Source of the DNA: an uncultured Nitrososphaerota archaeon
GTDB taxonomy: Archaea; Thermoproteota; Methanomethylicia; Nezhaarchaeales; WYZ-LMO8
Reading direction: 5' to 3'
Length of the DNA stretch: 64,000 nucleotides
NCBI GenBank assembly: GCA_964562935.1
Contig: CAZLVJ010000002.1
Location: forward strand, 844 to 64,843
Shown here piece by piece: positions 28,873-45,441 of the stretch. The stretch's first letter is position 1. Each line of letters starts with the position of its first letter. The notes beneath the pieces were generated by a model. The model had not been told where the DNA came from. It ran no database searches and saw only the letters and a program-made list of their open reading frames with translations. A program made the translations under genes and the position numbers.

Positions 28873-30678
28873 TCACTCCTCTCTTTCTTCTACCTCCTCC
28901 CTTTCAGGTATGTAATAGTACTCCCCCATGCCCTTCTGCTTTCTGTGAAGGTAAGAGTCCGGCTTGTTTATTCTAACCCTCCCGCTGTGAAGGTCCCTCC
29001 TAAAGGTGACGTCGACTTCCTTTAAGAAGGCGTTAAAGCCGCTTCTCAAGTCCATGGGGCTTGACGCGATGCCATAGACCCCAGGCTTACCGCTAAAGAC
29101 CATTATCGAGTCGGCGACGGCATCCATTACGACGACGTCGTGCTCAACGACGAAGGCTGCAGCCTTTCTCTCATCAACTATTTTTCTAACGAGCTTCGCC
29201 ATTATTAGTCGTTGCTCGACGTCTAAGTAAGCCGAAGGCTCGTCTAACAGGTAAATGTCGGCTTCCCTGGCCAGCGCACATGCTATGCTAACTCGCTGAA
29301 GCTCTCCACCGCTAAGAGATGAAAGTTTGCGATCAAAAAGGCGCTCGAGCATAAACGGTTGACATATCTCACTCTTGAACCATGAAGAAGATAGCACGCT
29401 TCCTACGTTTCTTAACAAGTAATCATAAACTGTTTCGTCGCTTTCAGGTGTAAGGTATTGCGGTTTGTAGCTTAGCTTCATATCGCTCTTTCCATCTTTT
29501 GATGCGCGCTCTATGAGGGACTTCACGAACGTGGTCTTACCAATTCCGTTAGGGCCCAATATGCCGATTACCTCTCCTTCATGTATAAGTCCTTGGTTCA
29601 CGGTGAGCTCGAATACCCCTCCTACCTTAACCTTGAAAGAGGGCCATGAGAAAAGCTCGTTAACGGCTAGAGACTCCCGGGGCCTAGGTCTTAGCCTAAA
29701 CCTTATCGGCTCACTCCTGAACCTCACGTTCTCGCCGGGTATGTAGCCGTCGAGGTATATGTTTATGCCCACTCGAACCCCGTACGGTTGTGAGGCGATG
29801 CCATATGCCCCTGGCTTACCGTACATGATGCACACCTTGTCCGATACGTAGTCGAGGATGGCGAGGTCGTGCTCAGCGACTATAACGGCCTTTCCCTCTC
29901 GCGAGAGCGACCTTATGACCTTGGAGGCCTTGAGCCTCTGCATCACGTCGAGGTAGCTTGCTGGCTCGTCAAATATGTACACGTCGGCTTCTCGACTGCA
30001 AGCGACTGCTATGGCCAGCCTCTGCAACTCCCCGCCACATAAAGCTGAGATTTCCCTGTTAGTTATGTCAATTAAGTCGAGCTCCCTCGCTAAATCCCTC
30101 CACAGGCCTCTCTCGTCGACTTTGATAAGGAGGTCTTTGACGGTGCCTTTAACATACTTGGGTATTAAGTCAACATACTGTATTTTATGAACAGCGCGTA
30201 ATCTCCCAGAGTACAGGTCTCGAAAGTAGGGCTGAAGCTCTGTGCCAGCGAAAAAGCGCACGACGTCGTCTTTTGTCGGTCGGAGCTCTACGTTTCCGAG
30301 GTTTGGTATGAGGTCGCCAGCTAAAATGCGAAGTATCGTGGTTTTTCCTGTGCCATTGGGGCCTATTAAGCCCAATACCTGGCCCCTTCTAGGCGGAGGG
30401 AGCCTGTAAAGCCTAAAGCCATTAGCTCCGTATTGATGGACGCATTCGCGCTCTATCTCCTCTGGCAGGTTAACTATGGTTATAGCCGAGAAGGGGCACT
30501 TCTTGACGCAAATGCCGCAGCCCACACAAAGGTTCTCCTTTATCATCGGCCTCTGAAGCTCTTCGTTGATCTCAATTACCATTACCTTATTTCTGACGAG
30601 CGGGCAAAAGCGGAGGCACTCCCTATAACACTCCTTCGGCTTACAGAGGTCTCTATCTATAACAGCTATCCGGGGCAT
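28873..30678 (-). CDS. abcE1: Ribosome recycling ATPase ABCE1 (RLI)
   Basis: 601 aa; N-terminal 2x[4Fe-4S] (CVGCGICVKKCP), twin ABC cassettes with Walker A GPNGTGKTT / GPNGIGKTT and LSGGELQR signatures. Confidence 0.9.
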   Translation of the reverse strand: MPRIAVIDRDLCKPKECYRECLRFCPLVRNKVMVIEINEELQRPMIKENLCVGCGICVKKCPFSAITIVNLPEEIERECVHQYGANGFRLYRLPPPRRGQVLGLIGPNGTGKTTILRILAGDLIPNLGNVELRPTKDDVVRFFAGTELQPYFRDLYSGRLRAVHKIQYVDLIPKYVKGTVKDLLIKVDERGLWRDLARELDLIDITNREISALCGGELQRLAIAVACSREADVYIFDEPASYLDVMQRLKASKVIRSLSREGKAVIVAEHDLAILDYVSDKVCIMYGKPGAYGIASQPYGVRVGINIYLDGYIPGENVRFRSEPIRFRLRPRPRESLAVNELFSWPSFKVKVGGVFELTVNQGLIHEGEVIGILGPNGIGKTTFVKSLIERASKDGKSDMKLSYKPQYLTPESDETVYDYLLRNVGSVLSSSWFKSEICQPFMLERLFDRKLSSLSGGELQRVSIACALAREADIYLLDEPSAYLDVEQRLIMAKLVRKIVDERKAAAFVVEHDVVVMDAVADSIMVFSGKPGVYGIASSPMDLRSGFNAFLKEVDVTFRRDLHSGRVRINKPDSYLHRKQKGMGEYYYIPEREEVEEREE

Positions 30679-36195: not shown

Positions 36196-36828
36196 ATGAT
36201 GAAAGACGGCTCGAGAGTACTGATAACCGGGACTCCTTCTACGGGCAAAACAACGACAGCAAAAAGGTTAGCTGAAACTCTTAATTACCATTACACTGAC
36301 GTTGCAAAAGTGATAGTCGAAGAAAAGTTGTACAAAAGTCTAGATGAGGAGAGAGGTAGTTTTATCGTAGACATAAAGAGGGCCAGAGAGTTCTTCGCAA
36401 CGTACCTCACAGAACGGCAGGGTGTCGTCTTAGATAGCCATGTCGTTGAGATATTTCCGAGAAAGCTCATAGACAAGGTGCTGGTCTTAAGAGTACACCC
36501 CCTCATCATCCTGAAGAGAGGGGTCGAGAGGAGGTGGCCGCTGAGAAAATGTTTAGAAAATGCGCAAGCAGAGCTCTTGGGCATATGCCTTTCTGACGCC
36601 TTACGATACTACGGTAAGAAAAAAGTCTGGCAAGTCAATTGTACGTGTCGCTCAGCAGAAGACGTAGTCTCGGAAATTCTATGCATACTTCAAGGCAAAG
36701 GAGAGAGGAGAGACGTAGATTGGCTCGTAGAACTTGAGAAAGAAGGAAGACTTGACTTGTTATTGGAGATTGAAAAAGCTCGTGATCTGCCTAAAGATCT
36801 CTTCAAACTTTTGAACAACTGTGGATAA
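36196..36828 (+). CDS. Fap7/AK6-like nucleotide kinase
   Basis: 210 aa; VLITGTPSTGKTTTAKRLA P-loop, size/architecture of archaeal Fap7. Confidence 0.5.
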   Translation: MMKDGSRVLITGTPSTGKTTTAKRLAETLNYHYTDVAKVIVEEKLYKSLDEERGSFIVDIKRAREFFATYLTERQGVVLDSHVVEIFPRKLIDKVLVLRVHPLIILKRGVERRWPLRKCLENAQAELLGICLSDALRYYGKKKVWQVNCTCRSAEDVVSEILCILQGKGERRDVDWLVELEKEGRLDLLLEIEKARDLPKDLFKLLNNCG

Positions 36829-37005
36829 GAAATCTCCAGTAGCTTTGCCAGCATTAGTCAGCGTTGCATTAACCCCTCCTAAAAGCCCTACAACCATAGA
36901 CAAAATTATCGAGAGTAACACTACCGAAATACCTATGAGCATGCCCTCTTCCAAAAGCAATGACCCTCTAACGCTCTTTTTATCGTTCTCGGGCATACGT
37001 TTCAC
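36760..37005 (-). CDS. Flp/type-IV-pilin-like prepilin candidate
   Basis: 81 aa; charged leader MKRMPENDKKSVRG then SLLLEEGMLIGISVVLLSIILSMVVGLL hydrophobic helix; G|xxxxEEG resembles the Flp G|xxxxEYG motif; last gene of pilus-like operon. Confidence 0.35.
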   Translation of the reverse strand: MKRMPENDKKSVRGSLLLEEGMLIGISVVLLSIILSMVVGLLGGVNATLTNAGKATGDFLSTVVQKFEEIFRQITSFFNLQ

Positions 37006-37029: not shown

Positions 37030-37848
37030 TTAAACCCATCCATAGAGAGGTGGAAATATCAGAGCAGCAAAGATCGTAAAGCAGACGGCCAAGTTTTTGA
37101 GAGACGGGTGATGCAACTGAATTATGTAAGTGAAGAGCGTGAAAATCGTTATGGATAATAGAGCAAATGATGTGAAGACGTAAACACTGGCCGTGAGATT
37201 CGTGGACGTAAACTTCGCAAGTGTAAAGAAGGCCTTTATAATAAAGCCTAGAGCCATGGCCGAGGCAATCTGCAACACCCTGTACTTCAACTTCTCGACA
37301 GCGATGAGATCCCTTAACTTTTTAGCGTTAAGGCAGAGCGAAAAGCTCAGGTCATGCAATGATATCATGAGACTTCTCAAAGAAATTTCATCGATGAAGT
37401 CAAGCTTTTCTAATAATGAGAGGGCGAGCCTCGTTAAGGGCGATGAAGGCCTTGTCCCTCCTGAAGCACGTGCACTCTTGACTTTCAATATTTTCTTGCA
37501 AAGCATAACTTTTACCATTTCCCTCGCTTTGAGTAAAGCCTCTGACCTCTTGTAGGACATTTTATAGGCTTCTTCCAATAAAGAAGGCAAATTCCTCCGA
37601 TTGCTTAAGGACTCAATAAATCTGATGATAAGTAAATGAAGGGCTTCATAATCGGTAAAGCGGTTGTTCAGTTCCGTGACTACTTCGATACAGCTTTTCA
37701 TAACTATGTAAACGGAGAGAGCTATTGCAAGGGAACAAGAGGAGGAGAGGAAGTAGTTTGATGTTATTGAGGAGGAGAAGAGGAAGTAGTTTAAAGCGAA
37801 TATCAGAGACGAGAGGACGGCTTTCTTGATCAAAGTCACGTCGATCAC
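37030..37848 (-). CDS. TadC/FlaJ-like (T2SSF-fold) polytopic membrane platform protein
   Basis: 272 aa; N-terminal TM helices, ~150-aa charged helical cytoplasmic domain, C-terminal TM pair; operonic with secretion ATPase. Confidence 0.4.
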   Translation of the reverse strand: MIDVTLIKKAVLSSLIFALNYFLFSSSITSNYFLSSSCSLAIALSVYIVMKSCIEVVTELNNRFTDYEALHLLIIRFIESLSNRRNLPSLLEEAYKMSYKRSEALLKAREMVKVMLCKKILKVKSARASGGTRPSSPLTRLALSLLEKLDFIDEISLRSLMISLHDLSFSLCLNAKKLRDLIAVEKLKYRVLQIASAMALGFIIKAFFTLAKFTSTNLTASVYVFTSFALLSITIFTLFTYIIQLHHPSLKNLAVCFTIFAALIFPPLYGWV

Positions 37849-38478
37849 CTAAACTAAAATATTTGCATACCGCTTCAAGACTATGATTACTAGTTGCAAG
37901 ACAATACCATAAAACAGTGATGCCACTAATGGTAGCAAGCTAAGCGCTTCTCTTTGGTGGAATAGGGCTAAGAGAGTTACGAGCACGGGAGCTATGGTTA
38001 TGCCAGTCAGCACCAATGTGATGATATTTCTAACGTTAGTTGTGAACAACCTACTCCGCAAGTCTCTTACAACTCCTTGAAATAAAAGAGCGTTGATCCT
38101 CTCTCTATCTTGGGAGAGAGGGTCAGAAAAAATTATGCTGAAGAAGGGAGGGTTAAGCTCTGAGGTCTCTATGTTTCGTCCCAAAGAGAGTTTTTGGGCG
38201 AGCAATTTTATTTGCGGAGTTAATACATCACACGAGTCGTTTAACCTTGTTAAAGCTATAAATGCCGACGGGCTATTGCGATATATGTGATGCATTATTG
38301 ATGCCATTTTCACTAACAAAGGATTTGGTCCAACCACAAAACCCTGCCTCTTGAATTCTTTTATCTGATAACTGAAAATCGCGCTGAAAGTCGCTATCAA
38401 AATTGATGATAAAAGAACCATGTGAGGCTCAGATAGCATACACACCCTCTTTTGTGAGTTTTTTAAGAAAGTCATCAA
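37849..38478 (-). CDS. TadB/FlaJ-like membrane platform protein (true start probably an internal Met near 38421-38439)
   Basis: 209 aa; TM - cytoplasmic domain - TM-TM topology; ORF-track start overlaps ATPase by 50 nt. Confidence 0.4.
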   Translation of the reverse strand: MMTFLKNSQKRVCMLSEPHMVLLSSILIATFSAIFSYQIKEFKRQGFVVGPNPLLVKMASIMHHIYRNSPSAFIALTRLNDSCDVLTPQIKLLAQKLSLGRNIETSELNPPFFSIIFSDPLSQDRERINALLFQGVVRDLRSRLFTTNVRNIITLVLTGITIAPVLVTLLALFHQREALSLLPLVASLFYGIVLQLVIIVLKRYANILV

Positions 38479-40555
38479 AAGCCTTCGTGAAATGCTCGAC
38501 GTCTGATGGGGGGCTTAATGTTAGTGAACTAAACAACGCCTTTAACTCTTCGTATTCCCTTCTCAACGTATTATGACTATTTCCTAGCCCTAAAAGCTTG
38601 AAAATCGAGGGTGATTTAAAAACGTCGTCTAAGATGATTTTGTGTAAATCTCTTTCGGGGCTCCATTTGAATATCAAACTTAGAGGGATGTCGAGGGGGT
38701 CGGTGGAGGTCGATTCTAAGGTACCAATAGCCCACACCTCTGCGACACGCCTTAGAATTTTAGAGCCCCGATAACACTTCACCATGTGGACTATTAAGTC
38801 TATGCCGCTCAAATCCTCCTTCGAGATACCGCAATGCAGTAGCAGGCGCCTTATTAAGCCAGAGGCCGAGGAGGCGTGGCATGTATGTACTCCTCGAAGA
38901 CCCGCTGCCACAGCGTGAAATAAAGCTTTGAAGTGTTCCTTTGACTGCAACTCCCCTAAGCAGACCCAGTCGGGAGTTCTGTGCAAAAGCTTTATTATCT
39001 CCATAGATTTTTTACGAGTCTTCTCTGCCACTTCAAAAGGCTCAACATAAAGTCTAAGTTGATGGCGACCTTGGTCTCTTTGATCTAAGCTCTCAACGAC
39101 GTCCTCTACGTAGACTTTACGCCAGTATTTGGGGGTGCACAAATCAAGAGCGTTCATTAGCGTAGTTTTTCCGGTCCCAGGTTCACCACAAATTATGATG
39201 TTTCTCCTATTTATAACGTGCAAAACTAAGAAGGCTGCCTCTTCTAACGACAATACATTATTGAGGACAAGGTCCACTATTGTGTAGACCCTATGCCTTA
39301 GCTTTCGAAGGTCGAGCGAGGGACCTTCGTGAGAAAGAGGAGGTACATCTATTGATGTCCTGACGATAAAATCGCCTAACCTTAGGTTCCACTTCAGTGA
39401 AGGATTTAAATAACTTAGTGGCAATTTGCTTTCAAGCAACACGTGATTTATAAAGCGTTGCACATCCTTGCTCGTTAGTGTTACATTGGTCACGCATCTC
39501 CCAACTTCTTCATGATCTACGTACACCTTTGTCCCAGGCTTGTCGAGGTAAACCTCATCGACGTGCCCATCCAGTAAAAAAGGCATCAATTTATGAACCC
39601 CCAAGGCTCTATACGCTGAGAAGAGCGCGACCTTCTTAATCAAAGGGTCATCCCCGCGGACTAAGCCCTTGGTCTTCACGATGTCTTCGAACATGTCCTT
39701 TAAAAGGCATATCTTGTACCATAAAGAGTCTTGCCTTATCATTTTGTCTAGGATCCCTCCACCGACGCTATCAATTAACATATCTGAGAGGTACTTTGCT
39801 GCGTAAGGCAAGTTTAACGATACGCGGTATAGGTGTTCAGACGATTGAAAGTCGTATATCTCTATATCGAAGACGTCTACCTCGTAACTTTTAATTGGAA
39901 ATCCTTTGTGGTACTCGTCGATAAAAGCTATTTTCATAACTTTCTGTGGACGAAATATCTCTTTATAAATTTCATTTTCAAACATATAATAACTGTTCTT
40001 AGATAGGAGAACAAATTGCGACTCTTCGATTTCCTTTAGAGAGGATGCTAGGAGAGATTTGAGCTCTTTAGCGCACCTTCTATTCCTACATCGCACTTTA
40101 TTGGCCTCGCAGAAAGCTAGACGTAGGAAGTCATAAAAGGCAAGGGGGTTGGTATAGGCGAGGCCTGTATTGTCAAAAAATGATAGATGATCTTTACAGT
40201 CAGCAACACTCCTATACAGTACGCATGAGTAAGAGCATCGAGGATCGTGGAAGGATTGCTTGGTCCAGAGCTTCATGAAATTTTTCCTAAGTTTAGAGAG
40301 CCTATGAGAGTAATCGCTCAATAATTTTATGGTCGAGGGGCTGTATTTTACGAGAGAGCCTTTCTCTTGGACTAGAAGAAGGGTCTTTTTTGAGCTTCCG
40401 CTTAGCAATGACAACCTTAGGAGGAGCTTGCCCCTGCACGCCTCCTTACCCACTAAATCCGGTTCATCGCCTCGACATCTCACGATGATGACCGTCCTCT
40501 CTTTCTTAAACAGCACTTTAACACAGTCTTCGTTAATACAATGAGACGTCATCAT
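38429..40555 (-). CDS. TadA/CpaF/FlaI-family type IV filament secretion ATPase with long Cys-rich N-terminal extension
   Basis: 708 aa; Walker A IIICGEPGTGKTT, Walker B/His-box PDWVCLGELQSKEHFKALFHAVAAGLRGVHTCHASSA typical of VirB11/TadA/FlaI; about 170 N-terminal residues with at least 10 Cys. Confidence 0.65.
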   Translation of the reverse strand: MMTSHCINEDCVKVLFKKERTVIIVRCRGDEPDLVGKEACRGKLLLRLSLLSGSSKKTLLLVQEKGSLVKYSPSTIKLLSDYSHRLSKLRKNFMKLWTKQSFHDPRCSYSCVLYRSVADCKDHLSFFDNTGLAYTNPLAFYDFLRLAFCEANKVRCRNRRCAKELKSLLASSLKEIEESQFVLLSKNSYYMFENEIYKEIFRPQKVMKIAFIDEYHKGFPIKSYEVDVFDIEIYDFQSSEHLYRVSLNLPYAAKYLSDMLIDSVGGGILDKMIRQDSLWYKICLLKDMFEDIVKTKGLVRGDDPLIKKVALFSAYRALGVHKLMPFLLDGHVDEVYLDKPGTKVYVDHEEVGRCVTNVTLTSKDVQRFINHVLLESKLPLSYLNPSLKWNLRLGDFIVRTSIDVPPLSHEGPSLDLRKLRHRVYTIVDLVLNNVLSLEEAAFLVLHVINRRNIIICGEPGTGKTTLMNALDLCTPKYWRKVYVEDVVESLDQRDQGRHQLRLYVEPFEVAEKTRKKSMEIIKLLHRTPDWVCLGELQSKEHFKALFHAVAAGLRGVHTCHASSASGLIRRLLLHCGISKEDLSGIDLIVHMVKCYRGSKILRRVAEVWAIGTLESTSTDPLDIPLSLIFKWSPERDLHKIILDDVFKSPSIFKLLGLGNSHNTLRREYEELKALFSSLTLSPPSDVEHFTKAFDDFLKKLTKEGVYAI

Positions 40556-40577: not shown

Positions 40578-40586
40578 TTTTATAGA
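40578..40586 (-). promoter_or_regulatory. TATA-like box (tctataaaa on minus strand) about 27 nt upstream of ATPase ATG; leaderless-type promoter
   Basis: Position and AT-rich sequence. Confidence 0.3.
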
Positions 40587-43624: not shown

Positions 43625-44002
43625 ATGGCAAACGGCATTTTGATGGACGTCGAAGCCGAGGTTAGTAAGGTAGAAAAAAGCGGATCAAAGGACTTAAGCG
43701 TAGTCAAATTGATTACATTGGATGGCACGAATATCAGCTTAGAGGTCCCTCACCCTCTTCTACAATTAAAGGGGGGAGAAAAAATACGCCTAGTCATAAG
43801 CACAGATCCTAACATCGAGCACGACGTGAATGGCCTGCTCCTATGCACGATATACAGCATTGAAAAGATCAAGAGCGGAAAAGAGGAGAGGACCTTTGTT
43901 TATGGATCCATCGGGGGGCTTCAAGCCAGAATGGAGGGCAAAGGACTCCACAAAAAGTTTAAAATGGGGGACAAAGTTTACTTGGGTATTAAATTGCTGT
44001 AA
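43625..44002 (+). CDS. rpoG: RNA polymerase subunit Rpo8 (RpoG)
   Basis: 125 aa; KLITLDGTNISLEVPH...EKIRLVIS pattern resembles crenarchaeal Rpo8 OB fold. Confidence 0.45.
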   Translation: MANGILMDVEAEVSKVEKSGSKDLSVVKLITLDGTNISLEVPHPLLQLKGGEKIRLVISTDPNIEHDVNGLLLCTIYSIEKIKSGKEERTFVYGSIGGLQARMEGKGLHKKFKMGDKVYLGIKLL

Positions 44003-44156: not shown

Positions 44157-45122
44157 TTGCTTAGAGCAACTTGTGAGGAGTGCGGTGGGACTTTAATCCT
44201 CTCAGAAAGCGGAGAGTATGTCTGTGAGGCCTGCGGGCTCGTCTATGAGGAAACTAAGACGTTCCCACCTCGTAGTTTGACGGCCTGTGGTAAGAGGGGT
44301 GCACAACACTTTGAAGTGCTCAACAAAACACCTTTTAAAGTTCCGATATTTTGGCGTAATGCGTTTAGCAATGACAATATCGAAAAGATTAAGGCGATGG
44401 AGCGTTTTAGCAAGTTAGACTTCGTCCAGCGATATTGCATAGACAAGCTCTCTTTAAGGGCAATCCGAAGAGCTTACGCCGTTTTGCTATCCCTATGCTC
44501 GCTCCTTCCGGTTCAATTATCATCAACTATCAAGAGAAGGTCTCTAGAGGTGTACTACAACGCTGTCTTAAGATTGAGGAGCACGAGGAAAAATCACGTA
44601 GCGCTAATGACGGCCAGCTTTTATGTAGCTGTGAGGGAAAGGTATAGAAATTTTGACCTAACTCTAAAGCAAATAATACTTCACTTAAGGAAGATGGGCG
44701 TAAGCATTTCTATCAGCGACATATTCAGAGCAATCTTCTTGTTAAGAAAGGTCCTAGGCGTCGTTTTAAAGCCTAGAAACCCAGAGGAGTTGTTATCCAT
44801 CGCTATAAGAAAGATTATGAGAGATGAGAGGGTCAAGGAAAAGTTGTTGAGAAATAACATAGATTCTCACCTATACTCAAAAGAGCTCTACAGTGAGGCT
44901 TCTCTATTGCTTAAAAAAGTTAAATGTAGCAAAAGTCCTTTATCGCTTGTAGCCACAGCTGTATATACTGCTGACAAAATCTTGGTTTTAAAACATCAAT
45001 GGAAAGACGTGCTGACACAAAAATCTTTAAGCTCCATATTAAACGTTAGCCCCTTCACCATTAGAGAGCTATATTACAAAATATTTAGAAAGTACATCTT
45101 TGGTGATCGGAGTGAGGAGTAA
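44157..45122 (+). CDS. tfb: Transcription factor B paralog (TTG start; Zn ribbon + two cyclin-like repeats)
   Basis: 321 aa; N-terminal TCEECGGTLILSESGEYVCEACGLVYEE ribbon; cyclin-fold-like ALMTASFYVAVRE and SLVATAVYTADKI...FTIRELYYKI. Confidence 0.65.
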   Translation: MLRATCEECGGTLILSESGEYVCEACGLVYEETKTFPPRSLTACGKRGAQHFEVLNKTPFKVPIFWRNAFSNDNIEKIKAMERFSKLDFVQRYCIDKLSLRAIRRAYAVLLSLCSLLPVQLSSTIKRRSLEVYYNAVLRLRSTRKNHVALMTASFYVAVRERYRNFDLTLKQIILHLRKMGVSISISDIFRAIFLLRKVLGVVLKPRNPEELLSIAIRKIMRDERVKEKLLRNNIDSHLYSKELYSEASLLLKKVKCSKSPLSLVATAVYTADKILVLKHQWKDVLTQKSLSSILNVSPFTIRELYYKIFRKYIFGDRSEE

Positions 45123-45441
45123 GGTGGTAAAATTGACTTTAGAGAACTTACTAGAGGTGTTGTTAAGCCACGGCATCCAACTACAAAAGATCGAGGAAAT
45201 GATGGCGGAGTTGGGCATCCCTCGAAGTTACATCGAAAGAGCGTTAGCGAACATAATAACGATATTCCCCCAAAAGGGGGTAAAAGAAGGAAAGGAACTG
45301 GGCAACTTAAGCGAGAGAAGGAGAAATTTTGACGAGCAAGCAGAGCTGACAGCACAAATAAGAGAAGTGAAAGAGCTAATCGAAAAAGTCTATAACAAGT
45401 TGTTCTTGACTCGTGATAGTGATGGGCCGGCCCGGACTTGA
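45100..45441 (+). CDS. Hypothetical small protein
   Basis: 113-aa ORF; 3' end overlaps antisense tRNA-Val; no recognisable motif. Confidence 0.2.
   Translation: MVIGVRSKVVKLTLENLLEVLLSHGIQLQKIEEMMAELGIPRSYIERALANIITIFPQKGVKEGKELGNLSERRRNFDEQAELTAQIREVKELIEKVYNKLFLTRDSDGPART

Follow-up and report, generated by a model that had tools for sequence, protein, structure and literature searches.

A secretion ATPase with a cysteine-rich N-terminal domain in a putative Flp-like filament cluster linked to a TFIIB paralogue in Thermoproteota and Asgard archaea

Introduction

Cysteine (Cys)-rich N-terminal domains on the ATPases of archaeal type IV filament systems are already described in outline. The passages of Makarova et al. 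2016 (PMC4858521) that deal with these systems note an extra N-terminal Cys-rich domain on the type IV pilus ATPase of subclade 4F (MA1299-like) and an N-terminal Cys-rich domain on that of subclade 4D (PAE2119-like, arCOG05558) too, and both domains were interpreted there as disulfide-forming. The 4D set, as given in the same passages, comprises the ATPase, proteins with 4-5 transmembrane (TM) segments that resemble no recognised family, a TFIIB paralogue of its own and RPB8, and a transcription-related role was suspected for it. A 2026 preprint proposed subsystem-specific N-terminal domains in general as interaction interfaces, still classed 4D as pilin-less, specific to Pyrobaculum/Thermoproteus and possibly a remnant, and found Asgard archaea to be largely without type IV filament (TFF) loci (10.64898/2026.04.22.720090). 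Here, we describe a 708-amino acid (aa) secretion ATPase encoded in a 64,000-nucleotide (nt) stretch of an uncultured Nitrososphaerota archaeon of the order Nezhaarchaeales (GenBank assembly GCA_964562935.1, contig CAZLVJ010000002.1, positions 844 to 64,843). This whole stretch is called the window, and positions are counted from its first letter. A sequence-only reading of the window had taken the Cys-rich extension of this ATPase for an architecture not yet described, which is incorrect in view of the account of the 4D and 4F ATPases in the cited passages (PMC4858521).

What is new is the gene context. A TFIIB/Rpb8-linked cluster with a Flp-like prepilin candidate was found well beyond Pyrobaculum/Thermoproteus, recurring in Nezhaarchaeales, Bathyarchaeota, Culexmicrobium, Thermoprotei and Asgard archaea of the Loki, Heimdall and Borrarchaeum types, often in a neighbourhood of Lsm, tRNA-guanine transglycosylase (TGT) and RpoG genes. 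The recurrence of this cluster with its TFIIB paralogue in both Thermoproteota and Asgard archaea makes up the most valuable part of the finding. The N-terminal domain forms a family with two four-Cys sites and without a counterpart in Pfam or the Protein Data Bank (PDB); in addition, the size of the extension is corrected here and the start codon of the gene is supported.

Results

The ATPase and the size of its N-terminal extension

The gene for the secretion (type IV filament) ATPase occupies 38429..40555 on the minus strand (708 aa, ATG start, stop codon included) and was identified from the list of open reading frames (ORFs), Pfam T2SSE, homologues, AlphaFold2 (AF2) models and Foldseek. 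Pfam PF00437 (T2SSE) matched with 56.6 bits (cut-off 24.9) at aa 390-593 only. All four boxes were present and invariant across 24 homologues: Walker A (GEPGTGKTT, 457-465), the Asp box (EDVVES, 484-489), Walker B (PDWVCLGE, 528-535, with its catalytic Glu) and the His box (HTCHA, 557-561). The T2SSE score and the four boxes confirmed the placement in the VirB11/TadA/FlaI superfamily that had been made from the sequence alone. The NCBIfam models for FlaI, VirB11, TadA and TrbB all matched far under their cut-offs (FlaI equivalog NF058587, 89 bits with a cut-off of 550; TadA-family/CpaF model TIGR03819, 69.4 bits with a cut-off of 373). Following the Walker B Glu (aa 535-537), GE[LI]Q took the place of the usual GE[IV]R(D/G) of secretion ATPases throughout the family, and Q537, which stands for the Arg, was invariant in the 24 homologues. 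No CxxC...CxxC of the GspE/PilB type was present in the C-terminal ATPase domain, with its Cys at 456, 473, 532, 559, 575 and 594. A precomputed match to PF27713 (UCP018868) was carried by most family members and also by a bacterial CpaF; this family probably covers the ATPase body and not the Cys-rich domain.

A profile built from 24 family members aligned at its positions 220-702 with chain residues 27-498 of Archaeoglobus fulgidus GspE (afGspE; 2OAP; E 2.4e-37), and its alignment with FlaI started at FlaI residue 131 (E 7e-30). The AF2 model of the full-length ATPase had a predicted local distance difference test score (pLDDT) of 84. When this model was compared by Foldseek, 2OAP was matched over 517 columns on a 503-residue chain (E 1.2e-25, TMt 0.79), and the next best were FlaI, CpaF, VirB11, PilT and PilB. 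Residues ~216-708 are a complete canonical secretion ATPase of ~500 aa, with an N-terminal domain (NTD), a C-terminal domain (CTD) and a C-terminal helical region, all encoded on the minus strand. The GspE/FlaI-type canonical NTD (aa 216-440; 39236..39910) was delimited by the profile alignment to 2OAP from residue 27 and to FlaI from 131 and by Foldseek, the RecA-like ATPase domain (aa 441-640; 38636..39235) by Pfam, motifs and profile alignment, and the C-terminal helical domain (aa 641-708; 38432..38635), as in afGspE, by the profile alignment to afGspE 498 and by model helices at 649-702. Because these ~500 aa match a whole canonical secretion ATPase, the truly extra part is aa 1 to ~215 (~200-215 aa). 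The extension had previously been put at ~300 aa, a figure that was too large because the canonical NTD of the ATPase, as seen in the 2OAP profile alignment and in Foldseek, had been counted in.

Start codon and promoter-like element

Approximately 28 full-length homologues of 680-720 aa were found in Nezhaarchaeales, with identity down to 29%, and in at least 24 homologues the alignment showed the N-terminus kept from residue ~2 onward in the same frame. A TATA-box-like element, TATAAAA (40578..40584, minus strand), lies 22 nt upstream of the ATPase ATG. The TCTATAAAA box was present 22-24 nt 5' of the ATG at five orthologous loci (the window, L033, L035, L001 and L004), and its consensus TCTATAAA(A/T) stood at a fixed distance from the ATG at all of them. 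In archaeal promoter geometry, such spacing of a TATA box puts the start of transcription at, or adjoining, the ATG; thus, the element may be the promoter of a leaderless mRNA. When the window gene was compared with that of L035, the ratio of nonsynonymous to synonymous substitution rates (dN/dS) of the N-domain was ~0.10, with dS near saturation, and dN was 0.25 in the N-domain vs. 0.10 in the ATPase domain. Judged by these rates, the N-domain evolves faster than the ATPase domain, yet is clearly constrained. Taken from these sequence comparisons, the N-terminal start codon is sound and the domain is real and conserved. An internal start codon was ruled out by the N-terminal conservation, the conserved promoter-like box and purifying selection, and the internal Met start after the Cys-rich region that had been held open earlier is contradicted by the same three results.

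The N-terminal accessory domain

The N-terminal accessory domain (aa 1-215; 39911..40555, minus strand) was characterised by an AF2 model of its own, profile search, isoelectric point (pI) and dN/dS. Predicted alone from a 15-sequence alignment, it reached a pLDDT of 85 and a predicted TM-score (pTM) of 0.85 and is confidently predicted to fold independently. In the model, a subdomain of aa 12-71 consists of a hairpin (12-17 and 20-25), a helix (38-50) and a second hairpin (58-64 and 67-71), and is followed at aa 73-200 by a long helix (73-103) and a helical bundle that extends to ~200.

No relative of the N-domain was found in Pfam at E ≤ 10 (best, Nab2-zf4, E 0.21), by profile search of PDB sequences (E ≥ 0.2) or by Foldseek (best E 0.44 in PDB and 0.076 in BFVD, TM ≤ 0.34). 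Known zinc-ribbon and zinc-finger families likewise gave no match by Pfam, PDB profile or Foldseek. An origin of the N-domain as a duplicate of the protein's own NTD was rejected (hhalign E 0.4). When 1.84 billion cluster representatives were searched with the N-domain profile, 19 proteins were retrieved at E ≤ 1e-3; nearly all were ATPases of 680-776 aa with the domain at the N-terminus, and one carried an intein. The named carriers were Nezhaarchaeales, Bathyarchaeota, Promethearchaeota (Asgard), Altiarchaeota and one metagenome-assembled genome (MAG) labelled Thermoplasmata. Beyond the TFIIB-linked group, the profile also reached long ATPases that are distantly related (P0043, P0045, P0047 and P0048; E 4e-5 to 1e-3). 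The intein protein, P0048 (L032 90-3911), is 1273 aa long, with the intein (Intein_splicing and LAGLIDADG) splitting the ATPase domain, and a single 766-aa protein is encoded downstream of it in place of two platform genes.

The N-domain is basic (pI 9.35, net charge +14). Its net charge ranged from +9 to +19 in the Nezhaarchaeales set and was positive in 24 of the 26 domains compared, the exceptions being P0043 and P0048. Three states of the N-terminal region were observed among orthologous ATPases whose cores are 36-48% identical. The full N-domain, with Walker A at ~415-460, was found in Nezhaarchaeales and in L005-L008, L012 and L031; a Cys-rich stub of ~85 aa, with Walker A at ~325-333, was found in the orthologous ATPases of L019-L021; and the N-domain was absent, with Walker A at ~240-275, from the orthologous ATPases of L009, L010, L016, L017 and L024. 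Because orthologous ATPases in the same gene cluster have a short version of it or none, the N-domain is accessory and not catalytic.

Two sets of four cysteines

Ten Cys (positions 6, 11, 27, 40, 107, 111, 120, 149, 156 and 161) lie in the first 161 aa, and all five motifs on which the earlier claim of a Cys-rich module with at least 10 Cys was built were found. The density is 6.1%, whereas the remainder of the protein has 1.5% and 66 ORFs of the window have 1.45% (binomial P = 1.3e-4). This is the densest 161-aa stretch of the window; known metalloproteins of the window reach 9 Cys per such stretch, a similar density.

The Cys pattern was read from an alignment of 26 diverse N-domains. Site 1 (C6, C11, C27 and C40; 40436..40540, minus strand) is a putative zinc site that involves the N-terminal tail, the first hairpin and the start of helix 38-50; in the model, C27 follows strand 2 and C40 opens that helix. 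Site 2 (C107, C111, C156 and C161; 40073..40237, minus strand) is a putative zinc site bridging the N-termini of two helices, with C107/C111 placed before helix 112-124 and C156/C161 before helix 159-177 in the model. C27 and C40 were conserved in at least 90% of the members and C6/C11 in most. In distant members, C11 is replaced by a CxxC right after C27, and in P0026 a CxxxC is regained at the N-terminus if the upstream ATG at L003:5968 is used, whereas P0024 has lost all four Cys of the site. Site 2 was complete in 15 of the 26 aligned members, and its four Cys were missing together in 4 of the 26 (P0036, P0027, P0028 and P0044), three of which have the whole intervening segment deleted. 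In most of the distant members, the second pair of site 2 is a canonical CxxC. C120 and C149 stand outside both sites and are poorly conserved.

Each four-Cys site thus tends to be retained whole or lost whole among the ~26 members. Bathyarchaeota, Promethearchaeota and Altiarchaeota include non-thermophilic members, and cytoplasmic disulfides are not expected there. Because the four-Cys sets co-vary, their close pairs lie at helix N-termini and non-thermophilic lineages carry the domain, two structural Zn(Cys)4 sites are the most likely interpretation. Of the two zinc-binding modules proposed from the sequence alone, the two four-Cys sets stood in the alignment of the 26 N-domains; zinc as their metal is plausible, with comparative support.

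A 97%-identical homologue, P0001 (L033 3001-5142), differs by a 5-aa insertion, HDPR-HYDPR, at aa 101-106 (window 40238-40255 region). The insertion falls in a low-confidence loop directly before site 2 and has the appearance of a short tandem duplication or an indel polymorphism between strains.

Membrane proteins and a Flp-like prepilin candidate

The next genes on the minus strand encode two membrane proteins, both of very divergent sequence, and a small protein. Membrane protein A (37849..38478; ~190-209 aa, ~3 TM segments) is a putative TadB/TadC/T2SSF-like platform half, recognised by its ORF, gene order and weak T2SSF matches in orthologues. Its listed ORF starts at a TTG, 50 nt inside the 3' end of the ATPase gene. 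Since the orthologues of this protein are 190-195 aa long (190 aa at L033), its translation probably begins at the ATG at 38421, 8 nt past the ATPase stop. The L003 orthologue reached the Pfam T2SSF cut-off (E 1.2e-5, 25.7 bits, cut-off 25.2), and the platform orthologues of the Bathyarchaeota locus L031 gave weak to faint T2SSF matches. Membrane protein B (37030..37848; 272 aa, ~5 TM segments) may be the second TadB/TadC-like platform half, a weak assignment made from its ORF, gene order and hhalign. Families A and B have a common 'LxxGxxPExAL' cytoplasmic region (hhalign E 8.8e-4), and PDB profile searches with the membrane-protein families gave no match. With moderate confidence, we regard the two proteins as a split TadB/TadC-type platform.

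The small protein (36760..37005, minus strand; 81 aa, mature ~67 aa) is a candidate Flp-like prepilin, recognised by a motif that its family has at 18 loci. Its basic leader (...KKSVRG/SLLLEEGMLIGISVV..., with the slash at the putative cut) is followed by a Glu at +5 and one hydrophobic helix. The members at the 18 loci have the motif [KR][GA]/[SGA]xL[LVI]E[EQ][GS][LMI]L[LI]G and a single hydrophobic helix, and their mature forms would be 40-67 aa long. Proteins of Loki- and Heimdall-type Asgard MAGs are among them, a distribution that bears on the archaeal origin proposed for bacterial Tad/Flp pili. With a cut after Gly/Ala and Glu at +5, the 81-aa protein would conform to the class III signal peptides of Flp-type pilins. 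Its ORF shares ~69 nt of its 3' part with the convergent AAA_18 gene (36196-36828).

The order ATPase, membrane protein A, membrane protein B and small protein was kept in close relatives (L001, L002 and L033-L035) and in the distant L003. No prepilin peptidase was found in the 64-kilobase (kb) window; a Peptidase_A24 gene was found in the Bathyarchaeota cluster L031 and only there, with four further small one-TM proteins. Archaellum genes (archaellins and FlaF/G/H/J) were not found beside the ATPase; its neighbours are the two TM proteins, the 81-aa Flp-like protein, PAC2 and TGT. Because of the Flp-like family, the T2SSF matches on the membrane partners, and the Peptidase_A24 and small one-TM proteins of L031, the ATPase, the two TadB/C-like proteins and the Flp-like pilin most likely constitute a Tad/Flp-like type IV filament system.

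Divergent blocks of 3-5 small proteins were observed on the minus strand at four other loci (L031 2390-4680, L005 6939-7586, L006 4170-6443 and L024 6755-7618). They sit between the TFIIB paralogue and the ATPase, and their proteins have one N-terminal hydrophobic helix and are pilin-like. Such a block is absent from the window; that of L031 contains the Peptidase_A24 gene.

Linkage to a TFIIB paralogue and RpoG

Three genes of the plus strand lie ~3 kb upstream of the ATPase, past PAC2, archaeosine TGT and Lsm. The first encodes RNA polymerase subunit G/Rpb8 (RpoG; 43625..44002; Pfam RNA_pol_RpbG, E 9e-8). The second encodes a divergent TFIIB paralogue of 321 aa (44157..45122), with an N-terminal CxxC..CxxC zinc ribbon and degenerate cyclin repeats; its Pfam matches, Zn_Ribbon_TF (E 6e-6) and TFIIB repeat (E 0.011), were both below cut-offs. 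The third encodes a small helical/coiled-coil protein (45100..45441), for which hidden Markov model (HMM) matches were obtained in L001-L004, L006 and L031; in L003, L006 and L031, its gene is the one immediately upstream of the ATPase gene. The three genes are contiguous with the ATPase operon in L003 (3545-5958), and linked genes were also present at L005 5949-6953 and L031 469-1554. RpoG was near the ATPase in L001-L004, L006, L007 and L020. When the occurrence of the coiled-coil protein was compared with that of the N-domain, no conclusion was drawn; the coiled-coil protein was found only in Thermoproteota loci, and the comparison is confounded by phylogeny.

When GTDB species representatives were scanned with conserved family peptides, 24 archaeal loci were found, with 27 confirmed loci altogether. 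The archaeal loci belong to Promethearchaeota, Heimdallarchaeota, Borrarchaeum, Sifarchaeum, Njordarchaeota, Culexmicrobium, Thermoprotei/Thermoproteota and Geothermarchaeota, and the core identity of the ATPases outside Nezhaarchaeales was 27-48%. When HMMs of the window components were applied to these loci, the TFIIB paralogue lay next to the ATPase at ~20 of them, which come from both Thermoproteota and Asgard archaea (E 1e-23 to 1e-47). In the same scan, the Flp-like protein was found in most loci and RpoG in several, and Lsm-TGT and AAA_18 neighbours were frequent. A profile search for the TFIIB-paralogue family returned 69 proteins from Nezhaarchaeales, Asgard archaea and one MAG labelled Verstraetearchaeota, and most members of this family escape Pfam.

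The operon region of the window is otherwise of housekeeping and informational content: ribosomal proteins, proteasome and exosome subunits, aminoacyl-tRNA synthetases, thermosome, Lsm, archaeosine TGT and PAC2. The PAC2, TGT, Lsm and AAA_18 kinase-like genes adjoin the cluster even in Promethearchaeota. Because this informational neighbourhood, unusual for pilus loci, persists as far as Promethearchaeota, it suggests old vertical inheritance.

Discussion

A probable filament motor with a proposed docking domain

The explanation that we favour, with slightly better than even confidence, is a Flp-like filament motor whose basic N-domain, held by two zinc sites, docks or regulates it through a lineage-specific partner. 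A hexameric motor of the GspE/FlaI type would power the assembly of a short Flp-like filament, carried by a split platform of the TadB/C type. Each motor subunit would bear an N-terminal basic domain rigidified by two zinc sites. This domain would lie at the periphery of the hexamer. By docking to a partner or surface particular to the lineage, it would regulate or localise the motor, by analogy with the contact between GspE N1E and GspL and with the interface role suggested for archaeal N-domains (10.64898/2026.04.22.720090). Metal binding, the identity of the metal, the position at the hexamer periphery and the docking to a partner are the conditional parts of this proposal.

Several observations weigh against it. 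Residues 1-8, C6 included, have a pLDDT below 50 in the AF2 models. The spacings in the window protein (Cx4C, Cx12C, Cx3C and Cx4C) are unlike the textbook CxxC, and only 2-3 Cys of a site are present in P0016, P0018, P0022, P0043 and P0048. The assignment of the platform proteins is based on weak matches, with the Pfam T2SSF cut-off reached by only 2 of the 18 membrane-protein members. The host is probably a thermophile, and comparable Cys-rich domains were taken as disulfide-bonded in the relevant passages of Makarova et al. 2016 (PMC4858521). Finally, the TFIIB paralogue occurs with or without the N-domain, so that its co-occurrence with the ATPase gives no handle on the partner of the N-domain.

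Alternative explanations

It is conceivable, and in our estimate rather unlikely, that the Cys form intramolecular disulfides which stabilise the N-domain in a thermophile cytoplasm and that no metal is bound. Nezhaarchaeales and Thermoprotei are hot-spring or thermophilic lineages, and MAGs of these two groups are among the named homologues. Even-numbered, co-varying sets of Cys would fit disulfide pairs as well as Cys4 sites, and disulfides were proposed for the closest described architectures, 4D and 4F, in the passages devoted to them (PMC4858521). However, the domain with its CxxC also occurs in Bathyarchaeota, Promethearchaeota and Altiarchaeota MAGs, lineages not known for disulfide-rich cytoplasms. 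The Cys of CxxC and Cx2-4C pairs are too close for a stable mutual disulfide and are typical metal knuckles, and P0036, P0027, P0028 and P0044 have lost their Cys four at a time, not two.

An unlikely reading is that the N-domain is a zinc module that binds nucleic acid or a transcription factor and couples the ATPase to the TFIIB paralogue and RpoG. It would accommodate the charge of the domain (pI 9.35, net charge +14, positive in 24 of the 26) and the linkage of the operon to the TFIIB paralogue and RpoG at ~20 loci in a neighbourhood of Lsm, archaeosine TGT, AAA_18 and thermosome genes, and a transcription-related role was proposed for the analogous 4D in the passages cited (PMC4858521). 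The linkage to TFIIB, however, is equal for ATPases without the N-domain (L009, L010, L016 and L017), and Pfam, PDB profile and Foldseek searches returned no similarity to DNA- or RNA-binding zinc fingers. A basic surface could equally face acidic lipids, and the Flp-like pilin and the prepilin peptidase of L031 favour an ordinary filament function.

Iron in place of zinc, as rubredoxin-like Fe(Cys)4 or an iron-sulfur (Fe-S) cluster by which the domain would sense the redox state, is very unlikely. Four-Cys sites are able to bind iron, the Cys density is near that of the Fe-S protein of the window at 28873-30678, and an Fe-S domain protein accompanies the Aap pilus system of Sulfolobales (10.64898/2026.04.22.720090). 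The N-domain, however, has no cluster motif of the CxxCxxC...CP type and no similarity to rubredoxin or ferredoxin folds in Pfam or PDB, and whole sites are dispensable in many orthologues, which fits structural and not sensory sites. The redox-sensing role suggested for the domain by the sequence-only reading received no support from the present results.

That the extension is an annotation artefact, with an internal Met as the start and the Cys-rich stretch untranslated, is almost certainly wrong, given a frame and residues conserved from ~2 onward in at least 24 homologues, a promoter-like box at constant distance from the ATG at 5 loci, purifying selection on the N-domain and a confident prediction of its fold.

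Implications

The gene context raises two questions: what role a pilus-type motor has next to a private TFIIB, and whether the archaeal ancestry of bacterial Tad/Flp pili reaches into the TACK/Asgard lineage. A broader proposal, which we consider doubtful, is that an ancient, vertically inherited filament-like machine of Thermoproteota and Asgard archaea, set among informational genes, is genetically coupled to a dedicated TFIIB paralogue and RpoG, with the basic two-zinc N-domain as the physical link and the 4D remnant as a reduced descendant. If it were true, the N-domain would act either on the TFIIB paralogue, by tethering or sequestering it, or on nucleic acid, by binding it at the membrane, and the state of filament assembly or DNA uptake would control a transcription programme.

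Comparison with known systems

In bacteria, the N1E domain of GspE binds GspL and MshEN binds c-di-GMP, whereas the structural Zn(Cys)4 tetracysteine motif of GspE/PilB is in the C-terminal domain. The N-domain described here resembles the N-domains of bacterial GspE/PilB by functional analogy only, as an extra N-terminal docking domain; no similarity of sequence or fold is present, and the bacterial zinc motif is C-terminal. The ATPase body is like those of afGspE (2OAP) and FlaI (4IHQ/4II7) in having an NTD, a RecA-like CTD, a C-terminal helical region and all four boxes; it differs from both by ~200-215 extra N-terminal residues, by GE[LI]Q for GE[IV]R and by the lack of an archaellum context. 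As in bacterial Tad/Flp systems, the ATPase gene is followed by two genes, here for putative platform proteins, and by one for a very short candidate pilin, in which Glu would stand at +5 from a cut behind Gly/Ala; CpaF structures match the ATPase core strongly. In contrast to the present system, which has an archaeal host, CpaF is without a Cys-rich N-domain, and no secretin, TadZ or pseudopilin set was found in the cluster here.

Among the archaeal systems, 4F has by description the same architecture, with an N-terminal Cys-rich domain, but its PilA-family pilins and S-layer-like proteins were not seen here. Subclade 4D is similar in its Cys-rich N-terminal ATPase, its poorly recognisable multi-TM partners and the linked TFIIB paralogue and Rpb8/RpoG. 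It differs in the ATPase itself, since arCOG05558 proteins are 335-343 aa long and lack the C-terminal domain that the present 708-aa ATPase has. Moreover, 4D is reportedly without a pilin and confined to Pyrobaculum/Thermoproteus, whereas the present cluster has a Flp-like prepilin candidate here and at 17 other loci and is found in Nezhaarchaeales, Bathyarchaeota, Culexmicrobium, Thermoprotei and Asgard archaea. The profile search with the TFIIB paralogue gave no match in Pyrobaculum/Thermoproteus, the scan of GTDB species representatives returned no Pyrobaculum locus, and an extra homologue search with a diverse ATPase alignment gave nothing new.

Because two of the characters that define 4D did not hold and the comparison was made by description only, the system was not assigned to 4D or 4F. 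At L016, from a MAG labelled Thermoproteales, a TFIIB paralogue, a 497-aa ATPase and two membrane proteins were present and no pilin was detected; this locus looks intermediate between the present system and 4D, and 4D may be a reduced form of the former. The TFIIB-linked system is apparently a related, broader and undescribed variant.

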